Source: a virus. Taken from it: DNA of 64,000 nt. Both the position numbers and the translations under genes were made by a program. The notes under the pieces are model-generated. The model saw only the letters and a program-made list of their open reading frames with translations, was not told the origin of the DNA and searched no databases. Positions 2,953 through 51,046 of this stretch are shown here, in pieces; within the stretch, counting starts at the first letter, position 1, and each line of letters starts with the position of its first letter. The stretch covers positions 87,951 through 151,950 of IMG/VR virus record IMGVR_UViG_3300042566_002057; one strand, written 5' to 3'.

Positions 2953-3150
2953 ATGTCAAGAATTGATTATGATGTTGAAGAGGTAATGTCTGAAAGACCA
3001 AGTTACCGTTATGAGAACAAAGAATATCTTTTAGAAGTATTTATGAACCAATTAGGAATCACTGAGCAGGATTTAGAAAATGATCCTTCTTGGATGAGAG
3101 CTAAAGTTAGAGAAATGAATATCGATAAAGTATTGGATACTCAAAACTAA
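2953..3150 (+). CDS. Small hypothetical protein with C-terminal RxxKIxxIL-type tag
   Basis: Ends VREMNIDKVLDTQN. Confidence 0.65.
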   Translation: MSRIDYDVEEVMSERPSYRYENKEYLLEVFMNQLGITEQDLENDPSWMRAKVREMNIDKVLDTQN

Positions 3151-3154
3151 TTAA

Positions 3155-3288
3155 TTAGTGTAGTGTAAATAGTCCTAGGTGACTGACCGGTATACAAATA
3201 GCACGTACTATTAGCCCTGGCAATAGAGGATACATCAAGCTTGTATCAGATAGTAGGTTGAGGTAATAACCGTTAATCCTCACACAAA
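3155..3288 (+). ncRNA. Candidate tRNA-like structured RNA with expanded loops
   Basis: GTG/CAC, GTGT/GCAC, TACTAT/ATAGTA and TGAGG/CCTCA stems in cloverleaf order; GC-rich non-coding island. Confidence 0.3.
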
Positions 3289-3292
3289 AGTC

Positions 3293-3318
3293 AAACCTCA
3301 CTTCGGTGAGGTTTTTTT
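3293..3318 (+). terminator. Rho-independent terminator
   Basis: AAACCTCAC-TTCG-GTGAGGTTT plus T run. Confidence 0.85.
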
Positions 3319-3361
3319 ATAAATAAATCTACAATCTAGTTGAAATTTAAGGTTTTTTTCT

Positions 3362-3369
3362 TATATTTG
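3362..3369 (+). promoter_or_regulatory. Bacteroidota sigmaA-type -7 element (TAnnTTTG)
   Basis: TATATTTG 4 nt before ATG 3374; the same motif recurs before many genes. Confidence 0.6.
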
Positions 3370-3373
3370 TATT

Positions 3374-3790
3374 ATGATAAACGAGACAAAAATTAAGCAG
3401 GTACAGGATAAAATCAAAGCAGCAATTGCTCAGATTGAAAAAGATGAAAATGTTAAAATTGATTTTGGTTCAATTAGTTATACAAAAGCTTTTTATGGAG
3501 CTAAAATGACTGTTAAGACACTTGAAAAAACCGAAGCAGTTGTAGGTGTTTACGAAACAATTTGTAGACGACTTGGTTTCACACAAAATATCATTGGAAT
3601 GCAATTTTATGGAACAAATGGTGTCTATGAAATTGTTGATATTAAAACAAAAAATAGAACTTATCCAGTTATTGCTAAATCAGTATCTTCTGGAAAACAA
3701 TATAAATTTGCGGTAGAGCAAATCAAAAGATTAATCGGTGGTGATAAAATTATCAATCGAACCGCAAATCTCGACAAATTAATCAAATAG
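3374..3790 (+). CDS. Hypothetical protein with C-terminal tag
   Basis: Ends INRTANLDKLIK. Confidence 0.75.
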   Translation: MINETKIKQVQDKIKAAIAQIEKDENVKIDFGSISYTKAFYGAKMTVKTLEKTEAVVGVYETICRRLGFTQNIIGMQFYGTNGVYEIVDIKTKNRTYPVIAKSVSSGKQYKFAVEQIKRLIGGDKIINRTANLDKLIK

Positions 3791-4186
3791 ATGAACTTAC
3801 ATATAGACGATAAAGAATTTAACTTTTATGAATTTCCTGAAAAGATATCTCAATTAAAAAAGAAAAATAAAATTGATTTTGATATCTCAGTCTATATTTA
3901 TGATAATCAAGTAAGACCAGTCAAAGATTTAGAATTTCTTAAAAATTTGACTGAACTTCCTGATATAATACATGTTTCTAAATCTAAATATTATTATTGG
4001 GTTTTTACTGGATGTAAATTATTGGACATATCAGTAAATCAAGATAAAGGTTTTAGAGATTATAAAGACAGAGATATAGAAAAATTTGATGCCATAATTT
4101 CAATGTCTTATGTAGATGTTTATGGTTCTAATAATAAAAATTTAGTTGATAGAGAAATTAAACTAAATCAACTTTTCGGAAATTAA
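3791..4186 (+). CDS. Hypothetical protein with C-terminal tag
   Basis: Ends DREIKLNQLFGN. Confidence 0.75.
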   Translation: MNLHIDDKEFNFYEFPEKISQLKKKNKIDFDISVYIYDNQVRPVKDLEFLKNLTELPDIIHVSKSKYYYWVFTGCKLLDISVNQDKGFRDYKDRDIEKFDAIISMSYVDVYGSNNKNLVDREIKLNQLFGN

Positions 4187-4669: not shown

Positions 4670-5992
4670 ATGAAAATATTCAACTACATAGAATTCCTAA
4701 ACGAAAGTGTTTCACTTAATAAAATTCCTACTTATGAGGAATCAGTTGAAATGTGCTCTGGAGAAGATGCTACATTTTATGAGTCAAAATATGAAGTTGA
4801 AGGATTCCCAGTTTCTGTTTTTAACTATCGTTTAGCTCAATACAAAGACTTTGATATGCCTGTTCCATCAAAACCAGAATTAAAAGGTTTTGAGATGCGA
4901 GGTCTTACTTTTGTATTCAATAAAGATGGTTCTCTTTATAACAGATATGTACTACTTGAAAAGTTCTTTAACTTGAATCAAGTTCCTAACTCTATGTATT
5001 CTGTTGTTAAAGATTACAAAATCAGATATGTAAATAATAAAGAAGATGGTTCAATTGCTACTTTTGTGAAATTACCAAACGGTAAAGTAGTTGGTAAATC
5101 TAAAATGGGGTTTGATAACGATCAAGCGAATGGTATTAATAAGATATACAAAACTAATCCAGATGTTAAGTCATTTGTTGATTGGTCACTAAATAATAAT
5201 ATTGTTCCTATATTTGAGTATGTTGCTCCACATAATAGAATCGTTCTTAGGTATTTAGAAGAAGAGCTTATTCTTTTAAGACTTAGAGATAATAAGACTG
5301 GTAGACATATTGATATAAAAGAACATTTAGATAAGATTGGTTCTATCAAAATTTCTCCGTTTGAGGATGATAATACTTTAGATGATTTGATTGAAAAGTC
5401 AAAATCAGAAGTAGATAAAGAAGGATGGATTGTTCAGTTTGATAATGACCATATGGTTAAAATTAAAACTGATTGGTATTTCCAAAGACACGGTTTACTT
5501 ACAAATGATATTTACAGAGAACATGTTATCATTGGTTATATCTTAGATGATTTGATAGATGATGTTATTGCTCAAGTTCCAGAAGATGAAAAAGAAGCAC
5601 ACGAAAGAATTAATAAAATAATCTCAATCGTTAAAAAGGATTTAAGAGATAAGGTTGATGAAATTAATAAAGCTTATAAAGAATTTGTTAATTCTGGTAT
5701 GAGTAAAAGAGATTATGCTATAAATCATAGAGTTGGTAATCCTAACTTTGCTTTTGTTATGAATATGGACAAAGCAGAACAATTAAAGAAAATGTCTAAA
5801 GAAGAGATATTGGATATCTATGATGATATGGAATCCTATGAGTCCTCATTAAAAAGATGTGAACCATTTGAGATGGCTAAAGAATTTATTAGAAACCAAA
5901 CTAAGAGATTAGAAATTGCTAGAGAATGGTTAGAATCAAAAGATTCTACTCTATTTTTTAGAGACCCTGAAGAATCTGAAGATGATAATTAA
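4670..5992 (+). CDS. T4 Rnl1-type RNA ligase with N-terminal capsid-targeting-like tag
   Basis: EMRGL, KFFN, motif I KEDGS, FEY, EGWIV, KIK; starts MKIFNYIEFLNES. Confidence 0.85.
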   Translation: MKIFNYIEFLNESVSLNKIPTYEESVEMCSGEDATFYESKYEVEGFPVSVFNYRLAQYKDFDMPVPSKPELKGFEMRGLTFVFNKDGSLYNRYVLLEKFFNLNQVPNSMYSVVKDYKIRYVNNKEDGSIATFVKLPNGKVVGKSKMGFDNDQANGINKIYKTNPDVKSFVDWSLNNNIVPIFEYVAPHNRIVLRYLEEELILLRLRDNKTGRHIDIKEHLDKIGSIKISPFEDDNTLDDLIEKSKSEVDKEGWIVQFDNDHMVKIKTDWYFQRHGLLTNDIYREHVIIGYILDDLIDDVIAQVPEDEKEAHERINKIISIVKKDLRDKVDEINKAYKEFVNSGMSKRDYAINHRVGNPNFAFVMNMDKAEQLKKMSKEEILDIYDDMESYESSLKRCEPFEMAKEFIRNQTKRLEIAREWLESKDSTLFFRDPEESEDDN

Positions 5993-6028: not shown

Positions 6029-6826
6029 GTGAAATATCTAAAGTCTTATAAAATATTTGAGAGTTACAATACATTCGGAACTAAATCTATAACTGAAAAA
6101 GAGTTTGATCAGATTAGAAAAGAGAATTGTAAAAACTGGACTAAAGCTGAAACTGAAATATTCAGAGGTATGCCAAATTTAGGTGATTATTTGTTAGTAG
6201 ATCCACTAAAGGGTGACTTTAGAAGTTCAATTGAAGATACTAACATTCATTTAGACCTATTATCAAATCTACCAAGTTGGAAAGATTATCCTAAATATGA
6301 AAGATGTATTATAGGTGGAACTCGTGGATCAGCGACTGGTACTTATGGAGAAGCTGTCTATGAAATGATACCTTTTGATAATACAAAAATTGCGGTTTGT
6401 CCAGAATCAACTATTTGGGAATCATTTGGTAATGATTATGACAGATGGGGAGGTGACATCTATTTAGTTGAACATTTTTTAGACTCAATTGACTTAGATA
6501 CAAGTTGGAATCAGATTGGTGGTGGAACTATTGAGACTAAATTAAAATCTTTAGGTAATAGTTTTCACGGAAGTAAAATTTCAGAAATACCTAATAAAGA
6601 TCAAGAATCAGTAGATAATTTTTTAATGAGACATGCTGAATTTAGTTGGAAAAGACCAAATGAAATTACTGGTGAAGATTGTTTTAATTTTATAAACAAC
6701 AGTCTTTTTAATCCAAAAGTTAGAGGTTTTCAATTATTAAACTATGACCAAAACTTCAGTACAGAAAAAGGTAAACAAGTGTGGACAGAAGGTCCGGTAT
6801 TACTTATCAAATCACATTTAGTTTAG
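6029..6826 (+). CDS. Hypothetical protein with N-terminal capsid-targeting-like tag
   Basis: Starts MKYLKSYKIFES; TATATATA at 6017-6024. Confidence 0.8.
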   Translation: MKYLKSYKIFESYNTFGTKSITEKEFDQIRKENCKNWTKAETEIFRGMPNLGDYLLVDPLKGDFRSSIEDTNIHLDLLSNLPSWKDYPKYERCIIGGTRGSATGTYGEAVYEMIPFDNTKIAVCPESTIWESFGNDYDRWGGDIYLVEHFLDSIDLDTSWNQIGGGTIETKLKSLGNSFHGSKISEIPNKDQESVDNFLMRHAEFSWKRPNEITGEDCFNFINNSLFNPKVRGFQLLNYDQNFSTEKGKQVWTEGPVLLIKSHLV

Positions 6827-7117: not shown

Positions 7118-7348
7118 TTAATTACCTAATATCGATTTAATCTTTGAGTCTCTTATCTCTTGAACTACTAATTCTTTTAGAAATCTATATGAAGACCTTT
7201 TACCCGACTTATGATTGTAGTAAATTTTTATATGATTTCTATCATCTATATAACCACCGTATTCGCAATATAATGGAACAAAACCTTTTGTTCTCATATT
7301 ATTAAAATACCAACAAATACTTTCATCATTAATCATACTATTATACAA
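7118..7348 (-). CDS. Small hypothetical protein with C-terminal tag
   Basis: Ends EIRDSKIKSILGN. Confidence 0.7.
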   Translation of the reverse strand: MYNSMINDESICWYFNNMRTKGFVPLYCEYGGYIDDRNHIKIYYNHKSGKRSSYRFLKELVVQEIRDSKIKSILGN

Positions 7349-9528: not shown

Positions 9529-10764
9529 TTATAGTGAGTCGTAGTCTCCGCATGTACTTCTACATTCTCTGTCTAATCCAGAGTAATCAGAATCGTTTGT
9601 AATAACATTTTCATCTAAATTTAAGTAACTCATAGTATCCATATAAGGATAGTAATCCCAATCAACATCATCAGCGTGTACAACAATTCGACCTAATTTT
9701 CTATTTGTTCCATCTGTAATCTGTTCCCATTGTTCCATAGATTGAGAAGTTTTATACCACCATCCATTTTTCTCAGCAAATTGCTTAAACAGTTCTACAT
9801 CAGAATCGTGTGTGGTGTAGATTCTATCCATAAATTTAATAGGACTTCCCTCAAACTCAGCATCCCATAGAATTGCTCTACCTCTAATTTTGTCTGAAAC
9901 ATATTTATCACCAGTGATTGTGCCATTTTCTGAATAAAGAATGACCATAGATACTTGTTTATTGTTACAATAAATGTCAAAGTAAGATGAATTGACACTT
10001 GCCATACAAGAATTATTAAGAGTACCACCACCACTTTGATAATTATCTTCATCATACCAATTTGAAATATCATCACCTTTAACAACATCAAATTGTTTAA
10101 GAGCATCTTTAGCAAAATCGTAAGTTGCTTTATATTGATTAGTAAAATCTTCGATATCTTTGTCAGTGAATGCCACATTAGCACTTCTAAGTAAAGCTCT
10201 CACAAGTCTACCAATTTTCATATTGTTTCTTGAAGTTGACCAAACAGCTTTTATTTCTGGATCATTTACTTCTAAACAACTTTTATTTAATACAGTTAGT
10301 CTTGGATTTTCAACATCATACTCTTGAAATAGTACAAAAGTTTTTCCAGAAACTGAACTTATTGTTTCAGATAAAATAGTACCAAATATTCCAATATCAG
10401 GTGCCCAATTTGGTCTACCTTCTTTATTATAACCAAGTGCTTCAAATATTTTATTATTTTTATCACTATGAGTTAGATACTTACCTGATTCAACAACCAT
10501 CCAAGTTTCTGGTTTACCAGCGTAAAGCTCTTGAGCTTTTCTATCTGGTGTAAAACTAACAGCATCTTTCTCATCCGTTATGTCAATAAAGTTATATTGT
10601 ACTGGATAATCCTTTGAGTTTATTTTAATTAGTTCTGATGAAATCTTGTTACTATTAAACTTATTAATTAAGTTTATAAACTTTGATGAGAATACTACTT
10701 TAGATTCAAGTAGTAAATCATATATTTGGTTTTCTAATAAAAATTCGTTATATCTATTAATCAT
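9529..10764 (-). CDS. Phage hypothetical protein with N-terminal capsid-targeting-like tag
   Basis: Starts MINRYNEFLLE; GTLNNSCM, GRAILW, FMDRIY and YPYMDT motifs. Confidence 0.8.
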   Translation of the reverse strand: MINRYNEFLLENQIYDLLLESKVVFSSKFINLINKFNSNKISSELIKINSKDYPVQYNFIDITDEKDAVSFTPDRKAQELYAGKPETWMVVESGKYLTHSDKNNKIFEALGYNKEGRPNWAPDIGIFGTILSETISSVSGKTFVLFQEYDVENPRLTVLNKSCLEVNDPEIKAVWSTSRNNMKIGRLVRALLRSANVAFTDKDIEDFTNQYKATYDFAKDALKQFDVVKGDDISNWYDEDNYQSGGGTLNNSCMASVNSSYFDIYCNNKQVSMVILYSENGTITGDKYVSDKIRGRAILWDAEFEGSPIKFMDRIYTTHDSDVELFKQFAEKNGWWYKTSQSMEQWEQITDGTNRKLGRIVVHADDVDWDYYPYMDTMSYLNLDENVITNDSDYSGLDRECRSTCGDYDSL

Positions 10765-12678: not shown

Positions 12679-13242
12679 CTATTCAGTTTCTATCTTGAAT
12701 TCTTCATCATTATCATCAAATGTTTCATCTAACTCTAACTTTAAGTCAATAATTAAATCTTCAGAAATTTTCTTAATCTCTGTGTTTTTAGATATTTGAC
12801 CCATTATCTCAAAGTTAGCAGCGATATCATACTTTTTAAATTTGATATAACAATTTTTTATATCGTCTATTGTGAAATCTTTGTTTGGATCTTTTGGTAA
12901 AGCTTCTTTTAAGTCAATCATTATAATCATAGTGTACATAAAATCAGCATCTTGAAATGTTACACTTAACGAATCATATAACTTAGAGTATTTAGAAATT
13001 TCAGAGTTTTCTAATCTTAAACCTAAGTCTTTAAAAGACATCTTTGACTTATCTTTAGCGTCTTCTTTAGCTTTCTTTATTGATTTTGTTGTTTCTTCTT
13101 CTGGCTCTCTATCCGATCCTTCATACTCAAACATCTTATCAATCTTTCTTTTAAGTTGACTTAGTAAAGTAGAGATATAAGTTTCTGGAGTATCATTCAA
13201 TAATTCCTCTTTGATAAACTCTGTAAATTTAATAACTTTCAT
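12679..13242 (-). CDS. Hypothetical protein with N-terminal capsid-targeting-like tag
   Basis: Starts MKVIKFTEFIKEE; TAATATATA upstream. Confidence 0.75.
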   Translation of the reverse strand: MKVIKFTEFIKEELLNDTPETYISTLLSQLKRKIDKMFEYEGSDREPEEETTKSIKKAKEDAKDKSKMSFKDLGLRLENSEISKYSKLYDSLSVTFQDADFMYTMIIMIDLKEALPKDPNKDFTIDDIKNCYIKFKKYDIAANFEIMGQISKNTEIKKISEDLIIDLKLELDETFDDNDEEFKIETE

Positions 13243-13280: not shown

Positions 13281-14207
13281 ATGATGAAAAATATAGGGTA
13301 TTGTTGCATTCCAATGGGTTGTAATGTCGGTCTTAAAAAGAAAGAACAAATTACAGTAAACAGAGGAATGGTTCGTAAAACATTTGATGCTAAAGGATTA
13401 CCTTATGTGTCTGAGTTAGTTATTGAGAATCTTAAAGATACTCTCAAAGTATTAGACTATAATCTTAAAAATCATATCTACATCTATCGTTTGAGTTCAG
13501 ACTCTTTTCCTTGGATGTCTGAGTATGAGTTTTCTGACTTACCAAACTTTAATGTAATACAAAATCTTATGACTAAAATTGGTGATAAGATTAAATCAAA
13601 TGGTATTCGTTGCTCGTATCACCCAGGTCCTTTCAATGTTTTGGCAAGTGAGAACCCATCTGTTGTAGAAAAAACAATCAAAGAATTAAATAAACATGCT
13701 GAACTTATGGATATGATGGGTTTAGACCAAACTACATTCTATCCAATCAATATTCATATCAATACTACTCAACCAACGAGAGAAGAAGCGGCTCAACGAT
13801 TTGTTGATAGGTTTCCACTTCTTTCTGAGTCTTGTAAGAAAAGACTTACTCTTGAGAATGATGATTCACCAAATCAATACTCTGTAAAGATTTTACATGA
13901 TTTAGTTCATACTAAGATTGGTATTCCAATTGTGTTTGACCAACATCACTTTAATTATGGTCCACAAGACCAATCAATGGAAGAGGCTTTGAAATTGGCT
14001 CACTCTACTTGGTCTACAAGAGTAATGACACATATGAGTTCGCCAAAAACATTAGAAGATAATTCTGGTAAACAAACCGCACATGCTGACTACATCTATG
14101 AAGAAATTAAAACATTTGGTCTTGACTTTGATACAGAGATTGAAGCGAAAGCAAAAGACCTCGCAGTTATCAGATACAGACAACAATTTAAAGTTCTCAA
14201 AGGGTGA
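13281..14207 (+). CDS. uvsE: UV damage endonuclease UvsE/UVDE
   Basis: YRLSS, HPGPFNVLAS, LENDD, FDQHH, HADY, EAKAKD. Confidence 0.92.
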   Translation: MMKNIGYCCIPMGCNVGLKKKEQITVNRGMVRKTFDAKGLPYVSELVIENLKDTLKVLDYNLKNHIYIYRLSSDSFPWMSEYEFSDLPNFNVIQNLMTKIGDKIKSNGIRCSYHPGPFNVLASENPSVVEKTIKELNKHAELMDMMGLDQTTFYPINIHINTTQPTREEAAQRFVDRFPLLSESCKKRLTLENDDSPNQYSVKILHDLVHTKIGIPIVFDQHHFNYGPQDQSMEEALKLAHSTWSTRVMTHMSSPKTLEDNSGKQTAHADYIYEEIKTFGLDFDTEIEAKAKDLAVIRYRQQFKVLKG

Positions 14208-40340: not shown

Positions 40341-40821
40341 CGAATATCCTAAATTTTTAACAGAGGAAGAGTGTATCAGACTGATAGGCTTAGGTGAGTC
40401 AGGTGAATTGAATCCCGGTAAGATAAAAAGTCAAGGCTCTGGTTACAGAAAAGCCAAAGTTAGATGGATGAAAGAAGGTGAGTTAATAGATAAAGTAAGA
40501 AAAGAAGTTTCATTACTATCTGGATATCCAATTGAAAACCAAGAGAGTTTTCACTTTGTAAAATACTCTCAGGATGGTGAATACAAACCGCACTATGATG
40601 GTGAGAAAAGAGCTAAAACAGCACTTATTTACCTTAATGATGGATTTGTCGGGGGTGAAACTTTATTTATAAACATAGATAGAACTATTAAACCAGAGAC
40701 TGGTAAGTTGGTTATTTGGGATAATATTAATGAGTCAGGTAAAGACCCTGATAGTTTTCACGCAGGACTACCTGTGGAATTTGGAACAAAGTATATAGCA
40801 GTAATTTGGATAAAAAAATAA
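40333..40821 (+). CDS. 2OG-Fe(II) oxygenase, prolyl 4-hydroxylase-like
   Basis: YKPHYD, LIYLND..GGET.F, HAGLPV..GTKY. Confidence 0.88.
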   Translation: MVNEYPKFLTEEECIRLIGLGESGELNPGKIKSQGSGYRKAKVRWMKEGELIDKVRKEVSLLSGYPIENQESFHFVKYSQDGEYKPHYDGEKRAKTALIYLNDGFVGGETLFINIDRTIKPETGKLVIWDNINESGKDPDSFHAGLPVEFGTKYIAVIWIKK

Positions 40822-40823
40822 AT

Positions 40824-41582
40824 ATGAGATACTTATTAGATAGTGAGATTCTTAAATGGAATCAAAGATTAGAGAAAACACCTTACATGGTTTATCCTAA
40901 GTCTAGTTTACAGAGTTCACACGTGCACATTAGTTTTAGACAGAAATCCAGTAATCGATTCGGGTCACATCCATATAGTACAAGTGATTTTGTAGAAACA
41001 ATTGACCCACATATTAATAACTATCAATTTGTTTTTTCAGTTGCTAAGAATCGAGTTGATAACTTCTTTGATATTTTTGATAGACTCAGAGAAGAAGAAT
41101 TTGGTACAACTACTTGTTATACAAATACAAATAATGATAATAAAGTCGGTGAAATTAAGGTTACTGATGATATAGTTGTAAAGAAAGATTCACAGGTACA
41201 TAGTATTTTAGAAAAAGAATATGTTAGATTTTCTTATACTTTTACTGGAAAACTTTCACAGATTATGGGTTATGTTTTTTATTTAGAAGACGCAATTGAA
41301 TTCTTTAGTAGTATATGGGGTTATAATGAAGATGGTACTGAAGAACACTTAATTAAATATCCGATTGGTACTCTTGTCAGTGATGTAAAAGACAAGTCTA
41401 AAGACTATTTAATTTTAGATTATCAATATAGAAAGATTGACAAAAACTATTACATCGACTATGAATTAACAGAAGTATTAGGTGGATACTCGTCGGTTAT
41501 AAAATATGGTGATGTTAAAATTCTTAAAGAAAGTGAAATTTGTTTCAGTCGAAACGGAAGAATTGATGATATTTTAAATTAA
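40824..41582 (+). CDS. Hypothetical protein with C-terminal SH3-like domain and tag
   Basis: KYPIGTLV...; ends SRNGRIDDILN; ATG 40824 preferred over TTG 40806. Confidence 0.7.
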   Translation: MRYLLDSEILKWNQRLEKTPYMVYPKSSLQSSHVHISFRQKSSNRFGSHPYSTSDFVETIDPHINNYQFVFSVAKNRVDNFFDIFDRLREEEFGTTTCYTNTNNDNKVGEIKVTDDIVVKKDSQVHSILEKEYVRFSYTFTGKLSQIMGYVFYLEDAIEFFSSIWGYNEDGTEEHLIKYPIGTLVSDVKDKSKDYLILDYQYRKIDKNYYIDYELTEVLGGYSSVIKYGDVKILKESEICFSRNGRIDDILN

Positions 41583-41610: not shown

Positions 41611-42123
41611 TTGGACAAGTGGACTCAAAATCAATTCACAGACTTTCTCGAAGTGGAAAGAACAAATTGTTATTGGTTTTGGTTTAAAGGTAAAATCACA
41701 AGAAGAAGGAATAGAGATACTGGAGAAATCTATGAACAAAATCTATCTTCAACTTGTGAATGGAACGGAATGAGACTCGAAAATGGTTTCTATAACTGTT
41801 ATGATATTTTAATTGAAAGATATATGAGAGGATTAAAAGAAGGAAAATATAATGGTCAAACTAAGGCTGAGTTTGAGAAGAATAAACTAAGGGTTAGTGA
41901 TATATGGACTAAATCAGATGGTGATGTAGAAAAGGCAATATCACTTGCAAAAACACAAGCGAATAGAATCACTGACGAATGGAAAGCAATAAATCGAGCC
42001 ATGAGTGCTAAAGAAATGGGATATGAGGAAATATTTGAGGTTTTCTTCCAAAGAGCATACGAATTAGGTTCAGTTTCTAAATTAGAATACCGTGAGTATA
42101 AATTAGAAAAGCTTGGTATATGA
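41611..42123 (+). CDS. Hypothetical protein with C-terminal tag
   Basis: Ends YREYKLEKLGI; TATCTTTG at 41588-41595. Confidence 0.7.
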   Translation: MDKWTQNQFTDFLEVERTNCYWFWFKGKITRRRNRDTGEIYEQNLSSTCEWNGMRLENGFYNCYDILIERYMRGLKEGKYNGQTKAEFEKNKLRVSDIWTKSDGDVEKAISLAKTQANRITDEWKAINRAMSAKEMGYEEIFEVFFQRAYELGSVSKLEYREYKLEKLGI

Positions 42124-42434
42124 TCGTAAAATCTAAATTTCTCTGTAAGAGTGGATGTAAAACTGCGCCTTCTCGTGGTTACTCTGGTAAGCATAAACTA
42201 AATTGGACTGATTTATTTATTGAAGGTAAATGGTATGACGGGGAATATGAAACTTGGTCTCAACAACTTTATAAATTAAATAACGGTTGGAGAAGATACT
42301 GGGTTGTCAATGAAAAAGGTGAAAAAGAAGAAATGAATAGAATCAGAATGTCAACTATTTTCCAATTAGATGTTGAGGAATTAAGAGACGAAAAGATAAA
42401 TCAAATAATTGATGGAGATATGTCAAATTATTAA
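42120..42434 (+). CDS. Small SH3-like protein with C-terminal tag
   Basis: FIEGKWY; LRDEKINQIID. Confidence 0.7.
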   Translation: MIVKSKFLCKSGCKTAPSRGYSGKHKLNWTDLFIEGKWYDGEYETWSQQLYKLNNGWRRYWVVNEKGEKEEMNRIRMSTIFQLDVEELRDEKINQIIDGDMSNY

Positions 42435-42911: not shown

Positions 42912-43160
42912 ATGGCAACAGAATACACCGGAAATAAGAGTAGTTTAGATACGGGTTATGTTTTTGCTCCTTATATACCAATGACAACATCAGCGAACAT
43001 AGTTGAATATGGTTCTAAGAAAATAAGTAGAAAAAGAAAGATTAATAAGATATTTGATTTAGGATTAAGTATCGATGATGAATTCTCAAGAACTATGAGT
43101 AAATACTCAAAAAAAACTATAATTGCTAATTACTACAAAACAATAAAAATTACACAATGA
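42912..43160 (+). CDS. Mini-protein: gp23-like C-terminal capsid fragment with internal tag
   Basis: GNKSSLDTGYVFAPYIPM...RKRKINKIFD...MSKYSKK..NYYKTIKI. Confidence 0.6.
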   Translation: MATEYTGNKSSLDTGYVFAPYIPMTTSANIVEYGSKKISRKRKINKIFDLGLSIDDEFSRTMSKYSKKTIIANYYKTIKITQ

Positions 43161-44953
43161 CAAATATCAAATTAATAAAAAGTATATTAGATTTCTCTAA
43201 ACCATTTAGAACAGAATTACTTCTGGTCTTTTTATGTGTTTTTCTAACTTCAGCGATTGAGGCAGTAACAACATACTTACTTGGTGAGATTTTTAATATC
43301 GCGCAAAAACATTCAACAGAACAAAGTTATTTAGAACCAGCAATTTATCTTGTTGTTTTTGCACTTGTAACTTATCTTATTAAGACATTTATTGTTACTT
43401 ACCAACAAAGACTTGAAGTGCGTAAGTTAGATGTCGCTGTTGCAAATCACTTAAATCATGCTTCAATTTCAAGATACTTTAAGTTCTCGAACGGTCAACA
43501 TATAAATGAACACTCTGGTGTTAAACAAAATATCATCACAACCGGATTTACATCAGTTCAGAATCAAATGAATATGTTTATCTACCAGTTCTTTCCGTCA
43601 CTATCAAACTTTATTGTTTCATTAGTTGTACTTTTCTCTATTAGTCTTACAATAGGTTTTACTTACTTAGGAGTAACTATTTTATTTATCTACTCAATGT
43701 ACTACTTCAATAAAATGATGCAACCTAAAATTCGTGAGGTTCGAGATGCTAGAAATGAGACTTCAAGAACTATTAGTGAACTTTATCGTTATGTTTTTTT
43801 AATTAAGAATGAAGTAGCTGAAAAGAAATCAATTGATGATTTAGATAATGTACAAAGTTTACACCAAAAGTCTTATTCATCTGCTTGGATAGTAGGTATT
43901 AATTGGTTAACTGCAATTAAAATAGGTACATCTTTATTTAGATACTTAACAATTGGAATTGGAGTTTATTTATTATTCTCTGGTCAGATTACTGCAGGTA
44001 GTATCTTCTTAATATTTACTTGGTCGAATCATTTTATAAACTCTCTTTGGATGATTACTGATATGCAAAAACAGTTTATCACTGACAAGATTAACATTGA
44101 AAAGTATTTTGAGATTTTACAAATTGAACCAGATGTAAAAGAGGTTGAACAACCAATTGAAAATGATTTTGCTGGTGATATTGAATTTAATAATGTTAAA
44201 TTTAAGTATCCTGGTAGAAAAAGTTCACACGACTCTGACGAAGTAACTGAGAATGACTGGGTATTAAAAGGAGTTACATTTAATATTAAACAGGGTCAGA
44301 AAGTTGCTTTTGTTGGTGAGTCTGGTTCTGGAAAATCCACAATCGCTAATTTAGTAAGAAGAGCATTTGATCCACAAGAAGGTGAAATCAAAATTAACAA
44401 TCACCTTCTTAAAGAAATATCACTTTCACACTTTTTACAAAAGATTGGATCTGTGGACCAAGAAGTAATTCTGTTCGATAAAAGTTTAAGAGAAAACATT
44501 TCTTTTGGTACTAATAGACTTCTGACAGATGAAGAACTTAATAAGATTGCAAAATTAAGTAGAATAGATTCTTTCTATCCTAAGTTAGAACACGGTTGGG
44601 ACACGATTGTTGGTGAGAAAGGTTCTAAGATATCAGGTGGTGAAAAACAAAGAATTGGTATTGCTAGAGCTTTGGCTAAGAATCCAGAAATTCTTATCTT
44701 TGACGAAGCAACTTCTGCTTTAGACACGGTGTCTGAAAAAGTAGTTCAAAGATCGATTGATGTTTCTTGTAAAGGAAAGACATCTATTATAATTGCACAT
44801 CGTCTTTCGACTGTTAAAAACTGTGATAAGATATTTGTTCTTAGAAACGGTGAAATAATTGGAGAAGGAACACACCAGGAATTACTGGAGAGCTGTGAAT
44901 ATTATGCAGATTTGATTAAGAATCAATTATCACATAAATTAGAAAAAGTATAA
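43157..44953 (+). CDS. ABC exporter, fused permease-ATPase (MsbA-like)
   Basis: N-terminal TM helices; GESGSGKS, ISGGEKQR, DEATSALD. Confidence 0.93.
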   Translation: MTNIKLIKSILDFSKPFRTELLLVFLCVFLTSAIEAVTTYLLGEIFNIAQKHSTEQSYLEPAIYLVVFALVTYLIKTFIVTYQQRLEVRKLDVAVANHLNHASISRYFKFSNGQHINEHSGVKQNIITTGFTSVQNQMNMFIYQFFPSLSNFIVSLVVLFSISLTIGFTYLGVTILFIYSMYYFNKMMQPKIREVRDARNETSRTISELYRYVFLIKNEVAEKKSIDDLDNVQSLHQKSYSSAWIVGINWLTAIKIGTSLFRYLTIGIGVYLLFSGQITAGSIFLIFTWSNHFINSLWMITDMQKQFITDKINIEKYFEILQIEPDVKEVEQPIENDFAGDIEFNNVKFKYPGRKSSHDSDEVTENDWVLKGVTFNIKQGQKVAFVGESGSGKSTIANLVRRAFDPQEGEIKINNHLLKEISLSHFLQKIGSVDQEVILFDKSLRENISFGTNRLLTDEELNKIAKLSRIDSFYPKLEHGWDTIVGEKGSKISGGEKQRIGIARALAKNPEILIFDEATSALDTVSEKVVQRSIDVSCKGKTSIIIAHRLSTVKNCDKIFVLRNGEIIGEGTHQELLESCEYYADLIKNQLSHKLEKV

Positions 44954-44956
44954 AAA

Positions 44957-45343
44957 ATGGAAGAAAAAAAAGTAATTGTAAGTAAAGAGTTCATTGATAT
45001 TTTCAAGAACTTCAATGTTGTAAATAAAGTTGATGAAATGAAATTAATTTCTGAAAAAGAACTTTATTTATTATTAACTGTTTGTTTAGATAAACACGAT
45101 GATAGTCAACCTACCGTTGTTTATAATTTCCAACCATTTAGAGATAAAGTGATGGAGATATTTGATGTACAGGATGACAAAGAAACTAAAAATGAACTTA
45201 TCAATGAACTCATTTTAGAAACTGGAGATAAATACATTGAAACTGACTGTATAGTTGATGATATGGGTAATGGATTACCAAATCCACTAACTAAAGAAGA
45301 AGTTAGAGATGCAAAAATTTCTATTATTAACAGTGATAATTAA
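44957..45343 (+). CDS. Hypothetical protein with C-terminal tag
   Basis: Ends VRDAKISIINSDN. Confidence 0.7.
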   Translation: MEEKKVIVSKEFIDIFKNFNVVNKVDEMKLISEKELYLLLTVCLDKHDDSQPTVVYNFQPFRDKVMEIFDVQDDKETKNELINELILETGDKYIETDCIVDDMGNGLPNPLTKEEVRDAKISIINSDN

Positions 45344-45376: not shown

Positions 45377-47149
45377 ATGCAAGAAAACCAAAATACCGAG
45401 GAATTAAAAGAACCAGTTGTTGGAAACTTTAAACCTAAAAGAAAATTCTTAAACTTTGTTTCAGCTGTAAACGGAGCGCGTATTCGATTCATACGAGACG
45501 TGGCTTTTCTAAAAGGTGAAAAACTATCTGGGTTCTTAGAAAATGTCATCTTCAAAATCACTATTTGTGAAGAAGGAACTATTAAGTTTGAGGAACAAGA
45601 TGGAACTAATCTTTCTGACGAGAATATGATTAATCGTTTAATCGATGAAATTGATGCGATGGAAGTGACTGGATACGCTCAAAAGTTTGTTGTTAGTGGT
45701 TTAGAGTTTGCTGATGTCAATGGTGACCGATGTTATCTTGAAGTTGAACATCAAAAACCAATCGATAAATTAAAATCTATTTTTGATGATGAAGAAAAGG
45801 TAGAGATTTCTGAAAAAAGTTTGAGTTTAATTGATGATTTATTTGGATCTTCTGATGATGAGTTTGATGAAGATCACGCACTATCTGAGGTGTTAAATAA
45901 TATGGTGATGGAACTTTCGGAAGAAGATGCTAAAACTCTTGTAGAAACAATTGAAAATCCACCAGCTCCTAACGAAAAACTTAAAGAAGCGGCTGAGTCA
46001 TATATGGAAAAACAATTCCGTAAAATGAATGAGGAAAAGGTTATGGAATTGGAGTACCGTATTGAAGAAACTCAGAAAGAAATCATTCGTTATAAAAGTG
46101 ATGTAAAAATGGCTCAGAAAAAGATGGATGAAAAATCAGAGTCTCTAAAAGTACTTGAAAGTAGATTAGAAAGTATGAAACCAGGTGACGAACCAAACGG
46201 ATATGTGTTCTATGTTTCAGAAGAGATTAAAGATATGGAAGGTCTGGATGAAACAGAAGCAAAAGTTGCGGCTAAGATTGCAGACATTATGAAATTAAAA
46301 ATTGATGTCTTAACTGAAATGTTGACTGGTGGTTACTACAAAATCAAAATTGCTAAGAAAGATGATATCACTAATCAAGAGTTTGAGTTAGAAAAAGAAG
46401 TCTATCAAAAAATTGCATCTTTGGATGTAGAAGGTAAACTTTCTATTGTTGATGGTGAGTTTCAGTATCGTGGTAAAATGACTTGGCATCAAATCGTTGG
46501 TAAAATGATTCGTATGGGATTTGAACAAGAACCAGAGTTTGATAAATTGTGTCAGTCTAATTCTTATGACTCTCACGAAGAAGATAAGTCAACTGAAATG
46601 GATCTAGGTAATGGTATGGTTGACTCTGTATCTGAAACTTCAGTTTCTACAAAGCCAACTTCAACAGAGATTAAATCCAAAACTCTTAAAACCTTCAGTG
46701 AAGAAACTACATTAGTAGTTATGGGTACAATTGACCACGATGATAACCGTGATGTTGAGATTACTGATGATTTTACTGGATTTGGAGTGTGTGTTGGTGA
46801 TAAAATGATGAAATCATCTTATGAGTCTGATGGATTTATCTCAATTATGACTTTACCAGAGTTTAAGATGTGGCAATCACAATACCCAGATGCTATGACT
46901 GATGGTGGTGGAATAGGTTCATTTTTACTACCTAACTTCAAGGGAACTATTGGTGTAACTGCTATGATTGATGATGAATTCACAGCTGACTTTGATTTAA
47001 GTGATTTCATTCAACATCAATATGGAATGGAAGAGGCTGAAGTGTTTTTAACATTACCAGAAGGAACTGAGATTGTGAAAATGGGTGATTATCACCAAGT
47101 TCCAGTTGCAGCAATGAGAGATATCAAAATTGATAAAATTATTGAATAA
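45377..47149 (+). CDS. Large acidic coiled-coil protein with C-terminal tag
   Basis: 590 aa; ends MRDIKIDKIIE; TATCTTTG at 45356-45363. Confidence 0.8.
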   Translation: MQENQNTEELKEPVVGNFKPKRKFLNFVSAVNGARIRFIRDVAFLKGEKLSGFLENVIFKITICEEGTIKFEEQDGTNLSDENMINRLIDEIDAMEVTGYAQKFVVSGLEFADVNGDRCYLEVEHQKPIDKLKSIFDDEEKVEISEKSLSLIDDLFGSSDDEFDEDHALSEVLNNMVMELSEEDAKTLVETIENPPAPNEKLKEAAESYMEKQFRKMNEEKVMELEYRIEETQKEIIRYKSDVKMAQKKMDEKSESLKVLESRLESMKPGDEPNGYVFYVSEEIKDMEGLDETEAKVAAKIADIMKLKIDVLTEMLTGGYYKIKIAKKDDITNQEFELEKEVYQKIASLDVEGKLSIVDGEFQYRGKMTWHQIVGKMIRMGFEQEPEFDKLCQSNSYDSHEEDKSTEMDLGNGMVDSVSETSVSTKPTSTEIKSKTLKTFSEETTLVVMGTIDHDDNRDVEITDDFTGFGVCVGDKMMKSSYESDGFISIMTLPEFKMWQSQYPDAMTDGGGIGSFLLPNFKGTIGVTAMIDDEFTADFDLSDFIQHQYGMEEAEVFLTLPEGTEIVKMGDYHQVPVAAMRDIKIDKIIE

Positions 47150-47532
47150 TGGGTTTTACAAGATACTGGGAATTTAGTGGTTTAGATGAAGAGAAGTTTA
47201 GTGACTTCTCTTCTGTCTGTAAGGTATTGGTAGATAGTATAAACATACCACTTGAAGATATTACTATAAATGAAAGACAAGTCAGATTCAACGGTGTCGA
47301 TGAAGATGGTCACGAAACTTTTTATTTTAGTCTAGATAAATCAGGTTTTAACTTTTGTAAAACAAATATAAAACCTTATGATGAAGTCGTTTGTGGGTGT
47401 TTATATATTGCTAAGGTTATTTTTGGTGAAGATATTCGTATAAACCAAGACTGTGACCAAGGTGATGAACATATCGTACAAAAAGTAAAAAGTATACTGA
47501 GAGAAAATAAATTAGATAAAATATTAAATTAG
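47149..47532 (+). CDS. Phage hypothetical protein with C-terminal tag
   Basis: MGFTRYW..FNG..HETF..FCKT..KPYD; ends LRENKLDKILN. Confidence 0.75.
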   Translation: MGFTRYWEFSGLDEEKFSDFSSVCKVLVDSINIPLEDITINERQVRFNGVDEDGHETFYFSLDKSGFNFCKTNIKPYDEVVCGCLYIAKVIFGEDIRINQDCDQGDEHIVQKVKSILRENKLDKILN

Positions 47533-47583: not shown

Positions 47584-49125
47584 ATGATAATTAAAAACAT
47601 ACACGAAAAACTTTTGTCTGGTATTCAGACAATGTTGATTGACACGAAAGTCAACCTTCCTTATTATGGTGAGTTCAACCTACACGTAAACTTCCACGAA
47701 CAAGACTCTATTGGTACTTGTGCAGTGAACGTAACTAGTAAAGGTATGAACTTTTTCTATTCACCAAAGTTCTTAGAAGATCTTTCTCAAAAAGAAGTAA
47801 ACTTTATTACTCTTCATGAAGACTTCCACTTACTCTTCAATCACCCACGAAGAACTGTGACTGGTCAATACGACCACAAACTTTCTAATATCGCTCAAGA
47901 CATGATTATCAATCACGTTATTTGGGAAGATATTCCACACGCTTTTGTTGAAATTCCAAAGAACAAAGATGGTAAGAACATGGCACTTTTTGTTCCTAAA
48001 GAGTACCAAGGTAAACTTATCTTTGAGGAACTATATGAGTGGTTGAAAGAAGAAAAAGATAAATGGCAGAAAGAGCAAAAACAAAACTCACAATGTCAGT
48101 CTTGTAACGGTTCCGGTAAGAAAGAACAAGGTCAACAAGGTCAAGGACAGAAAGACCAAAAACAAAAAGGTCAAAGTCAACAACCTGGTGATGGTCAAGG
48201 TCAGGGTGAAGGTGAGAAACAAGAAGGTCAAGGACAGGGTCAACAACCTGGTGATGGCCAAGGTCAAGGACAGAGTCAACAACCTGGTGATGGTCAAGGA
48301 AAAGGCGAGTCTTGTCCAGATTGTCAGGGAACTGGTAATGAAGGTGGTAAAGACTCTAGTGGAAAACCATCTTATGGTCCTTATGGTAAAAATCCATCTA
48401 AAGATGGTGAGTCATTAGATACTTGGTCTAAAGAACAAATCTTCCAAGATATGGAAAATGGTTCTGGTGAGTATATGGACAAACACATCGGTGATGATGT
48501 ACCGGAAGAAATGAGAGATGCGATGGTGAAAGATGTTATGGAGCGACTTGCGGCTCGTGGTCTTTCAGCAGGTAACATCGAACAAACTCTTAACAAACTT
48601 CGTAAGAAGCGTAAAGATTACTTGAAAGAGATTAAAAGAGCGGTATCAAATATGATTTTTGGTACTGTGAAACAAAAGACTATTGTTAAACCTAACCGTC
48701 GTCAAATCTCTGGATTGAAGGGTAATCGTAAAGTAAAAACCAAAATCAACTGTATCTTAGATACATCTGGTTCAATGGGTGGTACTTTTGAGAGAGTTCT
48801 TTCTTATGTTTATCGAAATGACATCGAAATCAATTTGATTGAGGCTGATACCGAAGTTAAATGGATTGAGAACATCAAGAACAAACGTAAGTTAGAGACA
48901 ATGGTGATTAAAGGTCTTGGTGGTACAATTCTACAACCAGCGATTGATTTAGTTGCTGACCAATTCAACGAGTACAACACTGTTGTGTTAACTGATGGTT
49001 ACTGTGATTCACTTGACCTTACTAAGATTAAAGGTAAAGTTCTACTAATCTCAATTGGTGTGAAAGTTCCAATTAGTCGAAGTAACGGTAAAGTTAAACA
49101 GATTATGGTTGAAAAAGAGAACTAA
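47584..49125 (+). CDS. DUF2201-type metallopeptidase-like plus VWA domain protein
   Basis: HEDFH (HExxH), NIAQDMIIN, DTSGSM MIDAS, GGT, LTDG. Confidence 0.8.
   Translation: MIIKNIHEKLLSGIQTMLIDTKVNLPYYGEFNLHVNFHEQDSIGTCAVNVTSKGMNFFYSPKFLEDLSQKEVNFITLHEDFHLLFNHPRRTVTGQYDHKLSNIAQDMIINHVIWEDIPHAFVEIPKNKDGKNMALFVPKEYQGKLIFEELYEWLKEEKDKWQKEQKQNSQCQSCNGSGKKEQGQQGQGQKDQKQKGQSQQPGDGQGQGEGEKQEGQGQGQQPGDGQGQGQSQQPGDGQGKGESCPDCQGTGNEGGKDSSGKPSYGPYGKNPSKDGESLDTWSKEQIFQDMENGSGEYMDKHIGDDVPEEMRDAMVKDVMERLAARGLSAGNIEQTLNKLRKKRKDYLKEIKRAVSNMIFGTVKQKTIVKPNRRQISGLKGNRKVKTKINCILDTSGSMGGTFERVLSYVYRNDIEINLIEADTEVKWIENIKNKRKLETMVIKGLGGTILQPAIDLVADQFNEYNTVVLTDGYCDSLDLTKIKGKVLLISIGVKVPISRSNGKVKQIMVEKEN
48178..48300 (+). 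repeat. Coding repeat QQPGDGQG x3
   Basis: CAACAACCTGGTGATGGYCAAGG at 48178, 48241 and 48277. Confidence 0.85.
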
Positions 49126-49130
49126 AAAGT

Positions 49131-49158
49131 GAGAGAGTTAAACTCTCTCTTTTTTTTT
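49131..49158 (+). terminator. Rho-independent terminator
   Basis: GAGAGAG-TTAAA-CTCTCTC plus T run. Confidence 0.7.
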
Positions 49159-49170
49159 CATATCATTATT

Positions 49171-49971
49171 ATGATATCTATTTTTTCATTAGTAAGGAAA
49201 CCATTCAATTTTGATACTTGGTTAGATTACCATATTAGTATTGGAGTTGATTACTTCTTCTTAAAAGTAGAAGACACACCTGAGTTAAAAGAACTATTAC
49301 AAAAATATCCTAATGTATTTCCAATATATGATGATGAAAGTAGTAAGTTAAACAATTACTGGACTCTTATAGATAGACAAAAAGATTTTTTTAATTCAAT
49401 TAAGTCTCAATTGGTAAATTTAAATATTGATTGGATTTTTCACATAGATTCTGATGAATTACTTTGTGTTGAAAATATAAAATCATTTTTATCAGAAGTA
49501 GATAACAAATATAACACTTTACATTTCAGTAACTATGAAGCTGTTTATGATAAAGACGACTTAGAAAATCCATTCATAAGTTGTAACAGATTTAGATTTC
49601 GTAAACTACTTGCTTATGCTAATGGAAAACCCGGTGCTAAAGTAATTGACGAATTAAGTTGGTCTGGTCCACATAGATTCAATGGAAACTGTTATGAGGT
49701 ACCACCAAAAAAAGCAGTTATATTACACTTTGAGTCACCAACTTTTACACAGTGGTATGAAAAGTTTAATACAAATTCTAATATAGAAAATGATTCACTT
49801 CAAAAGATACCATTCAACTTCTATAGAAAATCCATAGAAGTTATAAGAAGTGGTGATATTGAAATGTGTAAAGATTTTTATCGTAAAAATAAAATAGATG
49901 TTAGTGATAATATAATTAAAATATTCTGGACTCCTATGTTAAATAGTAAAAATATAAATTGGTCCTTATAG
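49171..49971 (+). CDS. GT-A fold glycosyltransferase (GT2/GT92-like)
   Basis: WLDYHISIGVDYF, WIFHIDSDE (DxD); start moved past the terminator. Confidence 0.75.
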   Translation: MISIFSLVRKPFNFDTWLDYHISIGVDYFFLKVEDTPELKELLQKYPNVFPIYDDESSKLNNYWTLIDRQKDFFNSIKSQLVNLNIDWIFHIDSDELLCVENIKSFLSEVDNKYNTLHFSNYEAVYDKDDLENPFISCNRFRFRKLLAYANGKPGAKVIDELSWSGPHRFNGNCYEVPPKKAVILHFESPTFTQWYEKFNTNSNIENDSLQKIPFNFYRKSIEVIRSGDIEMCKDFYRKNKIDVSDNIIKIFWTPMLNSKNINWSL

Positions 49972-50004
49972 AATTTTATCTAACTTTGCAAAAATATATA
50001 AATT

Positions 50005-50547
50005 ATGAAAGTAATATTTTTAGATCACGATGGTGTTGTTTGTTTGTCTACTGAATGGGGTGGTCGAAGTAAAAAGAAATTGAAATATCTGAAAGAATAT
50101 CCAGGTACTGAAAAAGTTCCTGTTGAGTTTAGATTAGACAACTTTAATAAAAAAGCAGTCGATATACTGAATGATATCTTAAAACAAACCGGCGCTGAAA
50201 TTATTGTTTCTTCTGATTGGAAAGGACATGCTACTTTAGAAGAATTAAAAGAAATGTATATTAAATATGGTGTTATTAAATCACCAATTGATGTTACTCC
50301 AAATCACTATTTTGGTAGATATGAATTAGAAATGACTAGATGTTCAGAGATTAAAGATTGGTTAGAAGAACATCCAGAGGTTACTCATTGGGTTGCTGTA
50401 GATGATTTAGATTTAAGTGAAAAGTTTGGTGCTATTTCCGGTAACTCGAATGGTGGATTAAAGAACTTTGTCCTAACACCAAAATCATCAGAGGGTATTA
50501 AACAATCCGGTATAAAAGAAAAAATACTTAAATTCCTAAATGATTAA
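50005..50547 (+). CDS. HAD-superfamily phosphatase (Swiss Army Knife RNA-repair type)
   Basis: IFLDHDGV, IIVSSDW, WVAVDD. Confidence 0.8.
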   Translation: MKVIFLDHDGVVCLSTEWGGRSKKKLKYLKEYPGTEKVPVEFRLDNFNKKAVDILNDILKQTGAEIIVSSDWKGHATLEELKEMYIKYGVIKSPIDVTPNHYFGRYELEMTRCSEIKDWLEEHPEVTHWVAVDDLDLSEKFGAISGNSNGGLKNFVLTPKSSEGIKQSGIKEKILKFLND

Positions 50548-51046
50548 TGTTTTAGAATTTGACCATTTACACGAATATAAACACGCTTGGAATATGTCAG
50601 CCCGAGCGTGTTATTATATTTTTGAAAATTTGAATCGTTGTTTAATACTTTATCGATACAAATTGTCAGATGGTTTTATTTGGCAAAGATTTGGTGTTAC
50701 CGAACCATCTAAAATTAAACTTGATAAGATAAGTAGTGATAGTTTATTTATTTTCCATTTAGACATCTATAAAGAATCCACAGAAGATTTATCTAAACTA
50801 TTAGACTTTTGTTTGGAGAATAATATTGATGTTTATATTCCAATTAAAAGTAATAACTCACCGGTAAAAGATGGGTATGATTACTCACATATTGATAAGA
50901 TACGAGAGACATTAGAACGATATGAAACGACAAGATATGACCTTACTAATATTTCTTATAATAATTCTAAAGAAATCGAAAAGTCTATTAATGAAGCTAC
51001 AAAGCCAATAATCAGAGATATAAATATTAAAAGACTATTAGATTAG
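50540..51046 (+). CDS. Hypothetical protein with C-terminal tag
   Basis: Ends IRDINIKRLLD. Confidence 0.7.
   Translation: MINVLEFDHLHEYKHAWNMSARACYYIFENLNRCLILYRYKLSDGFIWQRFGVTEPSKIKLDKISSDSLFIFHLDIYKESTEDLSKLLDFCLENNIDVYIPIKSNNSPVKDGYDYSHIDKIRETLERYETTRYDLTNISYNNSKEIEKSINEATKPIIRDINIKRLLD

Follow-up and report, generated by a model that had tools for sequence, protein, structure and literature searches.

Several described systems use a short terminal module to bring otherwise unrelated proteins to one place. In phage T4, the capsid targeting sequence (CTS) is a terminal address peptide of about 10 residues on unrelated phage proteins (IPI to IPIII and Alt). The encapsulation peptides of bacterial microcompartments (BMCs) and the cargo-loading peptides of encapsulins are short terminal peptides on unrelated cargo with one shell reader, and those of BMCs are amphipathic helices with an h-h-x-x-h-h rhythm, where h is a hydrophobic residue. 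C-terminal peptides such as the SspB XB tether and the ssrA and MuA signals recruit proteins to AAA+ unfoldases of the Clp type, C-terminal h-x-x-h-h motifs (PIP boxes and the tails that bind the T4 gp45 clamp) dock many clients onto one ring, and the short SHOCT module occurs at the C terminus of many unrelated proteins and ends in a helix resembling Lys-x-x-Leu-Leu. Poxvirus PRANC/F-box-like proteins and J-domain proteins follow a related logic, joining a variable target-binding body to a constant module that recruits one machine. Here we describe a C-terminal peptide tag on many small, mostly unrelated proteins (carriers) encoded in 64,000 nucleotides of viral DNA, positions 87,951 to 151,950 of IMG/VR record IMGVR_UViG_3300042566_002057. 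This stretch, called the window below, makes up the final 64 kb of a viral contig 151,950 bp long (GC content, 0.31), and coordinates refer to the window unless the contig is named.

The tag shares features with each of these systems and departs from each. The CTS is N-terminal, is found on late virion proteins, and is followed by cleavage by the prohead protease after (L/I)-x-E, whereas the tag is C-terminal and its genes appear to be non-late, a late-type motif preceding only 1 of 27 and 0 of 44 carriers in the two genomes examined. BMC and encapsulin peptides lack an invariant Arg or Lys, and here 10 to 14% of the proteome is tagged, which makes for far more cargoes, and seven tag-positive genomes have no shell gene. 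The phage group encodes ClpC-like and ClpP proteins, but the SspB, ssrA, and MuA signals are extended and need the carboxylate or a fixed end, whereas the tag is helical and lies 0 to 9 mostly polar residues from the end; other degron types are still compatible with this arrangement. SHOCT has two helices in about 28 residues and a different spacing, and no match to it (PF09851) was found among 22 window carriers (hmmscan, E <= 1). Clamp motifs end in aromatic pairs on replication enzymes, whereas positions 8 and 9 of the tag are Ile or Leu, with Phe solely at position 9 (in 9 of 74 families), and no enzyme here is tagged. Carriers share the body-plus-constant-module logic of PRANC, F-box, and J-domain proteins; those modules, however, are folded, are 40 to 70 residues long, and have known readers, whereas the tag is a single 11-residue helix with a putative reader. 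Full-text literature searches, the huge-phage paper PMC7162821 included, returned no published description of the tag, in agreement with an initial sequence-only reading of the window, which knew of no described system to match it.

Enrichment, conservation, and distribution of the tag

Greedy open reading frame (ORF) calling on the whole contig gave 216 proteins (94% coding). The tag was scored with a broad pattern, R[DENQKT]x[KRNI][ILV]xx[ILV][ILVFTG], counted if it lay no more than 10 residues from the C terminus, and with a narrow core, R-[DE]-x-K-[IL]-x-x-[IL]-[LIF]. The broad pattern occurs at the C terminus of 27 of the 216 contig proteins, about one in eight. Shuffling whole proteins gave a mean of 0.24 matches (maximum, 2), shuffling only the final 20 residues gave a mean of 0.43 (maximum, 4), and reversed contig proteins gave no terminal match. 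Internal matches on the contig are near chance (5 against 2.9 expected), and the narrow core has 12 terminal matches against 0.01 to 0.04 expected. With 27 terminal copies against 0.24 to 0.43 in the shuffled controls, an explanation by composition fails. The 23 near-terminal copies and 1 internal copy listed in the sequence-only reading are all present, their translations verified by coordinate, although some of its ORF starts were slightly off (14098, 36743, and 40824 correspond to ORFs 14083 to 14409, 36707 to 37213, and 40806 to 41582).

Within the tag, Arg is encoded by AGA (22 copies), CGA (4), and CGT (3), which matches genome-wide synonymous usage, and the Ile and Leu codons (ATT, ATA, ATC, TTA, CTT, and others) swap freely, as they do genome-wide. 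Because tag codons follow genome-wide synonymous usage, the constraint acts on the peptide and not on the DNA, and the earlier proposal of conservation at the protein level holds. Both the enrichment of the tag and peptide-level selection on it are confirmed.

The large subunit of topoisomerase II of the contig is 80% identical to those of LR745206.1 (635 kb) and LR756502.1, which are uncultured huge phages of a Bacteroidetes-infecting group named "Mahaphage" (PMC7162821). For a survey of the clade we retrieved 80 IMG/VR loci around topoisomerase II, and we sampled LR745206.1 over 141 kb and a further huge phage, LR756501.1, over 42 kb. Among 1224 pooled proteins of the huge-phage clade there are 153 unique carriers, which fall into at least 74 body families unconnected by BLAST; carriers were grouped by BLAST on their protein bodies, and one representative per family entered the sequence logo described below. 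In a 281-kb genome (G007), 44 of 418 proteins are tagged, against 0.76 expected, and their genes are clustered in arrays, while 32 of 214 proteins are tagged in the sampled part of LR745206.1. All 14 ortholog pairs between the contig and LR745206.1 keep the tag at 38 to 63% identity, and so do 92 of 96 homologs of contig carriers at 27 to 80% identity (52 with a strict and 40 with a relaxed match). On IMG/VR contigs with a topoisomerase at least 68% identical, about 13% of proteins are tagged, and this is true of every contig, whereas a sister clade of T4-like phages at about 54% topoisomerase identity is essentially tag-free, including contigs with GC contents of 0.27 to 0.30. Because these sister contigs have the same base composition and essentially no tags, K/I/N-rich composition is not the cause; the restriction of the tag tracks lineage, not composition. 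Among the related phages surveyed, the tag is found throughout one clade of huge phages and is essentially absent from its sister, and the description of the tagged bodies as mostly unrelated in the sequence-only reading is borne out by the 74 families and by two different predicted folds.

LR756504.1 has a variant tag in which position 2 is basic, and the 42 kb sampled from LR756501.1 contain no canonical tag, four paralogs there ending in R-T-x-L-I-D-x-x-L instead. The same 735-kb genome carries a different C-terminal motif, D-P-Y-G-E-E-x-W, on at least four proteins (locus L003, positions 2888 to 3460, 19389 to 19904, and 30814 to 31611), which points to lineage-specific tags at the C terminus as a common trait of huge phages. 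The tag system itself is widespread: its clade is abundant in environmental metagenomes, with more than 100 near-identical DnaK clusters, and pattern scans of IMG/VR turned up dozens of further tag-rich contigs. When such scans were directed at small unrelated phages, nearly all matches were huge-phage fragments rated 7 to 18% complete. One contig stands apart from these, 3300020048_000517 (G020; 28,764 bp, rated 98% complete), which is unrelated to the huge phages and encodes two C-tagged proteins in its early leftward region, neither with homology to any carrier. This contig was found by the tag scan itself, so that only its second tag counts as evidence, with a chance probability by our own estimate of about 0.07; the two tags hint that the reader of the tag, or a homolog of that reader, is host encoded. 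The contig looks circularly permuted, because a methylase gene is split across its ends.

A putative docking helix and competing explanations

The logo built from one representative per family reads K(-3) S(-2) E(-1) h(0) R1 [DE]2 x3 K4 [IL]5 [NKD]6 [KEQ]7 [IL]8 [LIF]9 [NKDG]10. In 48 of the 74 families only 0 to 2 residues lie between the tag and the stop codon, and overall the distance is 0 to 9 residues, mostly polar, so the terminal position of the tag matters. Conservation along the tag has a moment of 0.34 at 100 degrees per residue, compared with 0.09 to 0.23 at other periods, as is typical of an alpha helix, and this moment is directed toward R1, I5, and I8. On a helical wheel, I8, R1, and I5 lie at 80, 100, and 140 degrees and, together with L9, span 80 to 180 degrees; K4 and D/E2 flank this conserved face, and the variable positions 3, 6, and 7 lie opposite. 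Ser at -2 and Asn, Gly, or Asp at +10 look like an N-cap and a C-cap, respectively. Taken together, the sequence features describe what appears to be a capped helix of about 11 residues (three turns) with a single conserved face and an invariant arginine at its center, in line with the earlier description of an amphipathic helix.

AlphaFold2 (AF2) models are available for two carriers of different architecture, both encoded on the minus strand, and in both the protein ends in the tag helix, as expected of a portable element. The first, a 125-residue protein of the largest family (20182 to 20559), is modeled with a predicted local distance difference test score (pLDDT) of about 80 to 90 in its C-terminal half; alignment and model alike place the tag (20191 to 20217) at the close of a 23-residue C-terminal helix. 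The second, a 175-residue alpha/beta protein (22162 to 22689; pLDDT, 91.9), has the tag (22165 to 22191) as its last helix, residues 165 to 174. Foldseek searches of both models against the PDB gave nothing at E <= 0.001, and a profile of 53 tails matched PDB sequences at chance level only (E > 0.5).

We favor, with moderate confidence, the explanation that the tag is a short linear motif, namely, a portable docking helix at the C terminus that one partner reads. The conserved face, with Arg at its center among three Ile or Leu residues and bordered by Lys4 and Asp/Glu2, would insert into a groove of this common reader, and dozens of small and rapidly evolving early or middle proteins, unrelated to one another, would in this way be brought to the same machine or place. 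Each carrier body would supply its own specificity, and in two cases the body is a capsid-protein fragment. The sequence-only reading had described a label docking many cargo or bait domains onto one common partner; its portability, the selection on it, and the unrelated bodies stand, and that a single common reader exists is something that we infer.

Other explanations have to be set against this one. That the tag is a by-product of composition, or the in-frame reading of a DNA-level signal (for instance, a promoter, terminator, or coupling element), would fit an AT-rich genome whose tags use AT-rich codons. We give this explanation virtually no weight and regard it as ruled out, since shuffles yield 0.2 to 0.4 matches against 27, synonymous codons vary freely, and sister phages of equal AT richness have no tags. 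Carriers also occur both inside and at the ends of operons, with a gap to the next gene of -14 to +161 nucleotides, and this spacing argues against a coupling or nascent-peptide signal; terminator hairpins follow two of the operon-ending carriers. The tag could instead mark early accessory proteins so that an AAA+ protease (the phage Hsp100 with ClpP, or host Clp, Lon, or FtsH) destroys them at a set time, in which case host-takeover proteins would vanish once unwanted. The C-terminal position of the tag and the non-late character of the carriers are compatible with this, and the phage does encode a ClpC-like Hsp100 with a UVR motif and a VGF loop, its gene directly following a carrier; true ClpP paralogs are present in LR745206.1 and LR756504.1, while ClpP, the VGF loop, and the canonical tag are all missing from LR756501.1. 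We nevertheless consider a degradation signal unlikely. Hsp100 and ClpP are shared with the sister clade that lacks tags, no ClpP shows up in two tag-positive genomes of at least 91% rated completeness, the helical tag with its polar end and variable distance of 0 to 9 residues from the carboxylate does not resemble degrons of the ssrA or MuA type, and selection for a degron on 10 to 14% of the proteome is hard to explain.

Terminal helices might also pair or bundle with each other, producing homo-oligomers, mixed oligomers, or condensates. Short C-terminal oligomerization domains such as SHOCT exist, and in one family a 23-residue helix closes with the tag in a model of ZapA-like overall shape (a match that is not significant), but 11 residues with Arg central on the apolar face make a poor pairing surface, most families have no upstream heptad continuation, and about 100 different proteins sharing one tag would mix indiscriminately, all of which makes self-association improbable. 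Parking of the carriers on the inner membrane by an amphipathic helix of the MinD/FtsA type is still less credible. A short C-terminal amphipathic helix with a Gly or Asn cap is what such a mechanism needs, and some copies of the tag are superficially like the tail of MinD. However, the uninterrupted apolar face of MinD and FtsA is not seen here, with Arg at 100 degrees between I8 and I5, Asp or Glu at position 2 as a conserved acidic flank, and only three or four apolar residues; in membrane-targeting sequences it is the amphipathicity that is conserved, not particular charged residues, and restriction to one clade would be hard to explain. A similarly low probability attaches to shared ancestry, in which carriers would be one family with a recognizable last helix of structural role and no common function. 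Carrier arrays do resemble the products of duplication, and several families are paralogous within genomes, but the bodies range from 51 to 731 residues with different predicted folds and include two capsid-protein fragments, surface charges invariant over 74 families argue for an external constraint, and neither of the two tagged proteins of the unrelated 28.8-kb phage is homologous to a carrier.

If the tag is a docking helix, a more specific scheme can be imagined, which we regard as clearly unlikely. The variable bodies of some 50 to 130 carriers per genome would grab proteins of the host or of rival phages, and the helix would hand them to a phage chaperone or protease machine, namely, DnaK/DnaJ and/or the ClpC-like Hsp100 with ClpP, with the capsid-fragment carriers grabbing capsid protein. 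Such an adaptor code would be a bacterial-virus counterpart of targeted remodeling and degradation of the F-box or proteolysis-targeting chimera (PROTAC) style. More generally, huge phages consist mostly of small genes of unknown function, and a tag on 10 to 14% of the proteome offers one handle on dozens of orphans: finding the reader would show where carriers act, and a chaperone or protease in that role would make this the first proteome-scale phage addressing code for host takeover. A portable tag of 11 residues is also a potentially useful tool in Bacteroidota.

Candidate readers

Among the kinds of protein that might read the tag, a host protein other than Hsp70 or a Clp component is a tentative first choice, followed closely by another phage protein; Hsp70 (phage DnaK, or host DnaK in the case of the small phages) is a lesser possibility, and a Clp-type unfoldase or protease is clearly unlikely. 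As an individual protein, Hsp70 is the leading candidate, a weak one, on the strength of gene content and modeling. The phage chaperone set comprises DnaK (PF00012; 7483 to 9369, plus strand), DnaJ (contig positions 86280 to 87347), and the ClpC-like Hsp100 (contig positions 46536 to 48644). A 76-residue carrier on the minus strand (7118 to 7348; tag, 7127 to 7153) adjoins dnaK divergently, and two carriers precede dnaJ on its strand in what appears to be a single operon. DnaK is encoded by seven of seven huge-phage genomes and by none of seven tag-free sister contigs. Prediction of a complex between DnaK and residues 51 to 125 of a carrier lent weak support, with an ipSAE interface score of 0.34 (runs, 0.33 to 0.36), compared with 0.00 for the best of three controls; the interface was not reported. 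This mark was reached by 58 of 80 solved complexes and by 2 of 110 mismatched pairs, and passes at or below 0.60 comprise just 7 of the 80 solved complexes plus both mismatches. At least 65% of contacts are common to the runs, and partner pLDDT is at least 71; since our own alignments were used, the counts of complexes and mismatched pairs are approximate.

A number of points weigh against a docking helix with one reader, and against DnaK as that reader in particular. Both AF2 models place the tag as a continuation of, or close after, the last helix of the body. A pass of the kind obtained with DnaK is more often wrong than right, and the contact may lie outside the tag. Complexes of Hsp70 with peptides have been solved, so the prediction may reflect memory, and a helical tag with a conserved acidic residue and polar positions 6 and 7 is a misfit for the extended, Leu-rich motif that DnaK binds. 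The substrate pocket of the phage DnaK, judged from an alignment consensus, appears canonical. LR756501.1 encodes DnaK, yet the 42 kb sampled contain no canonical tag, and many genes must share the pattern of being present in huge phages only, so that the phyletic match of DnaK discriminates poorly.

The Hsp100 is a double-ring protein of 702 residues with a ClpC-type UVR middle motif and a VGF loop for ClpP docking and without an N-domain. In the tag-positive clade it ends in a poly-Lys tail; this tail and an N-terminal acidic extension are absent from the LR756504.1 variant. Relatives add one or two true ClpP genes. As candidate readers, however, Hsp100 and ClpP are not clade specific, both being present also in the tag-free sister clade (G012, G014, and G015). 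The partners envisaged in the sequence-only reading therefore fare differently: an unfoldase and protease are present, but also where there are no tags, and a compartment drops out, the BMC and encapsulin shell families (PF00936 and PF04454) being absent from seven tag-positive genomes in searches that detected the positive controls.

A 513-residue protein (47584 to 49125) that combines a VWA-like domain with a putative metallopeptidase domain (DUF2201_N) is encoded directly downstream of two carriers and, like DnaK, is found in seven of seven huge phages and none of seven sister contigs. The Bacteroides control genome encodes no counterpart, and because of this the protein fits poorly as a reader if small phages use the tag. 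The sliding clamp was rejected as a reader because the polymerase of LR745206.1 has a separate, aromatic tail at its C terminus; the clamp therefore has a different ligand. The family B polymerase of that phage is split into an exonuclease half of 513 residues and a polymerase half of 474 residues that lie about 100 kb apart (L086/L090, at about 130 to 132 and 232 to 236 kb). An ABC half-transporter (43157 to 44953) was likewise set aside, having no homolog in five large tag-positive genomes; with regard to type I secretion signals, of which only a phage-encoded exporter was examined, the phage ABC exporter is not conserved with the carriers.

Carrier genes and their surroundings

Carriers are small, with a median of 117 residues against 187 for other proteins. 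By Pfam and PHROGs they are orphans except for two mini-genes, and in an hmmscan of 22 window carriers at E <= 1, no Pfam family was common to more than two members. Their operon partners include topoisomerase II, RNase H, a NusG paralog, and dCMP deaminase. As the sequence-only reading had noted, no recognizable enzyme is itself tagged; RNase H and topoisomerase, for instance, are without it.

The first carriers of the window, on the plus strand, have 65 residues (2953 to 3150; tag, 3109 to 3135), 138 residues (3374 to 3790; tag, 3758 to 3784), and 131 residues (3791 to 4186; tag, 4151 to 4177), and the LR745206.1 ortholog of the second retains the tag. Farther along the same strand, a carrier of at most 108 residues with an uncertain start (14083 to 14409; tag, 14377 to 14403) overlaps a UvdE-like gene and is followed by one of 105 residues (14406 to 14723; tag, 14691 to 14717) and then by a terminator-like hairpin. 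An 80-residue carrier on the minus strand (23025 to 23267; tag, 23031 to 23057) belongs to the topoisomerase II operon. All those at higher coordinates are on the plus strand. A carrier of 124 residues (30986 to 31360) has a tag with Ile at position 4 (31331 to 31357) and is followed by carriers of 168 residues (36707 to 37213; tag, 37178 to 37204), 144 residues (37898 to 38332; tag, 38285 to 38311, 6 residues from the end), 98 residues (39757 to 40053; tag, 39997 to 40023, 9 residues from the end), 93 residues (40059 to 40340; tag, 40302 to 40328), 258 residues (40806 to 41582; tag, 41550 to 41576), 170 residues (41611 to 42123; tag, 42091 to 42117), and 104 residues (42120 to 42434; tag, 42384 to 42410). 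The internal copy (43029 to 43055) lies 34 residues from the end of an 82-residue protein (42912 to 43160), and a 128-residue protein (44957 to 45343) has a shortened, 8-residue variant (45305 to 45328) that recurs in its LR745206.1 ortholog. The largest carrier of the window, with 590 residues and a coiled-coil/TacA1-like stretch (45377 to 47149; tag, 47117 to 47143), precedes carriers of 127 residues (47149 to 47532; tag, 47500 to 47526) and 168 residues (50540 to 51046; tag, 51014 to 51040).

The two mini-genes that escape orphan status lie next to each other on the minus strand (17053 to 17428) and encode separate pieces of the major capsid protein, Gp23, in reversed order, each fused to the C-terminal tag. 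The first has 66 residues (17053 to 17253; tag, 17062 to 17088) and matches PF07068 at profile positions 166 to 199 (E = 1.6e-5, 24.9 bits; phrog_138), and the second has 62 residues (17240 to 17428; tag, 17255 to 17281) and matches the same family at positions 222 to 260 (E = 1.3e-3). The Gp23-fragment family is kept in the clade, with nine members. A BLAST search of the mini-proteins against the G007 proteome, aimed at a full-length capsid gene, gave no clear match. Such carriers could be decoys or assembly modulators, and the idea that tagged domains serve as bait gains one example in this pair.

A second tag, N-terminal and of the T4 CTS type, M-K-(Y/H)-L-K-x-(F/Y)-x-x-F...E, is present on 17 to 22 contig proteins and on 43 in G007. 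The genes for these N-tagged proteins include those at 1895 to 2305, 4670 to 5992, 6029 to 6826, 9529 to 10764, 12679 to 13242, 20591 to 22132, 25168 to 25833, 34561 to 34944, and 58516 to 62916. About 60% of N-tagged genes have the motif AATATATA about 12 nucleotides before the start codon, which by analogy with T4 may be read as a late-type promoter. On the contig the motif is found upstream of 1 of 27 carriers and 10 of 17 N-tagged genes (Fisher P = 7e-5), and in G007 it is found upstream of 0 of 44 carriers and 26 of 43 N-tagged genes (Fisher P = 4e-11); if this T4-like promoter reading is right, carriers are a non-late gene class. Only two proteins have both tags, against 11.3 expected, so that the earlier claim that no N-tagged protein carries the C-terminal tag stands as rarity and not as strict absence. 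A C-terminal tag alongside a CTS-like N-terminal tag on late genes suggests that these phages may sort their proteomes by two terminal labels.

Two soluble proteins of about 200 residues (30391 to 31002 and 38370 to 38960) carry DUF6576 (PF20216), which is about 35 residues long, at the C terminus. Six genes of this kind are present in LR745206.1, and among 14 control genomes the domain was found in Bacteroides only; DUF6576 is a candidate for a second portable module at the C terminus and possibly mimics one of the host. Finally, a 740-residue protein (31594 to 33816) carries a signal peptide, and its C terminus, judged by eye, resembles a type IX secretion sorting domain.

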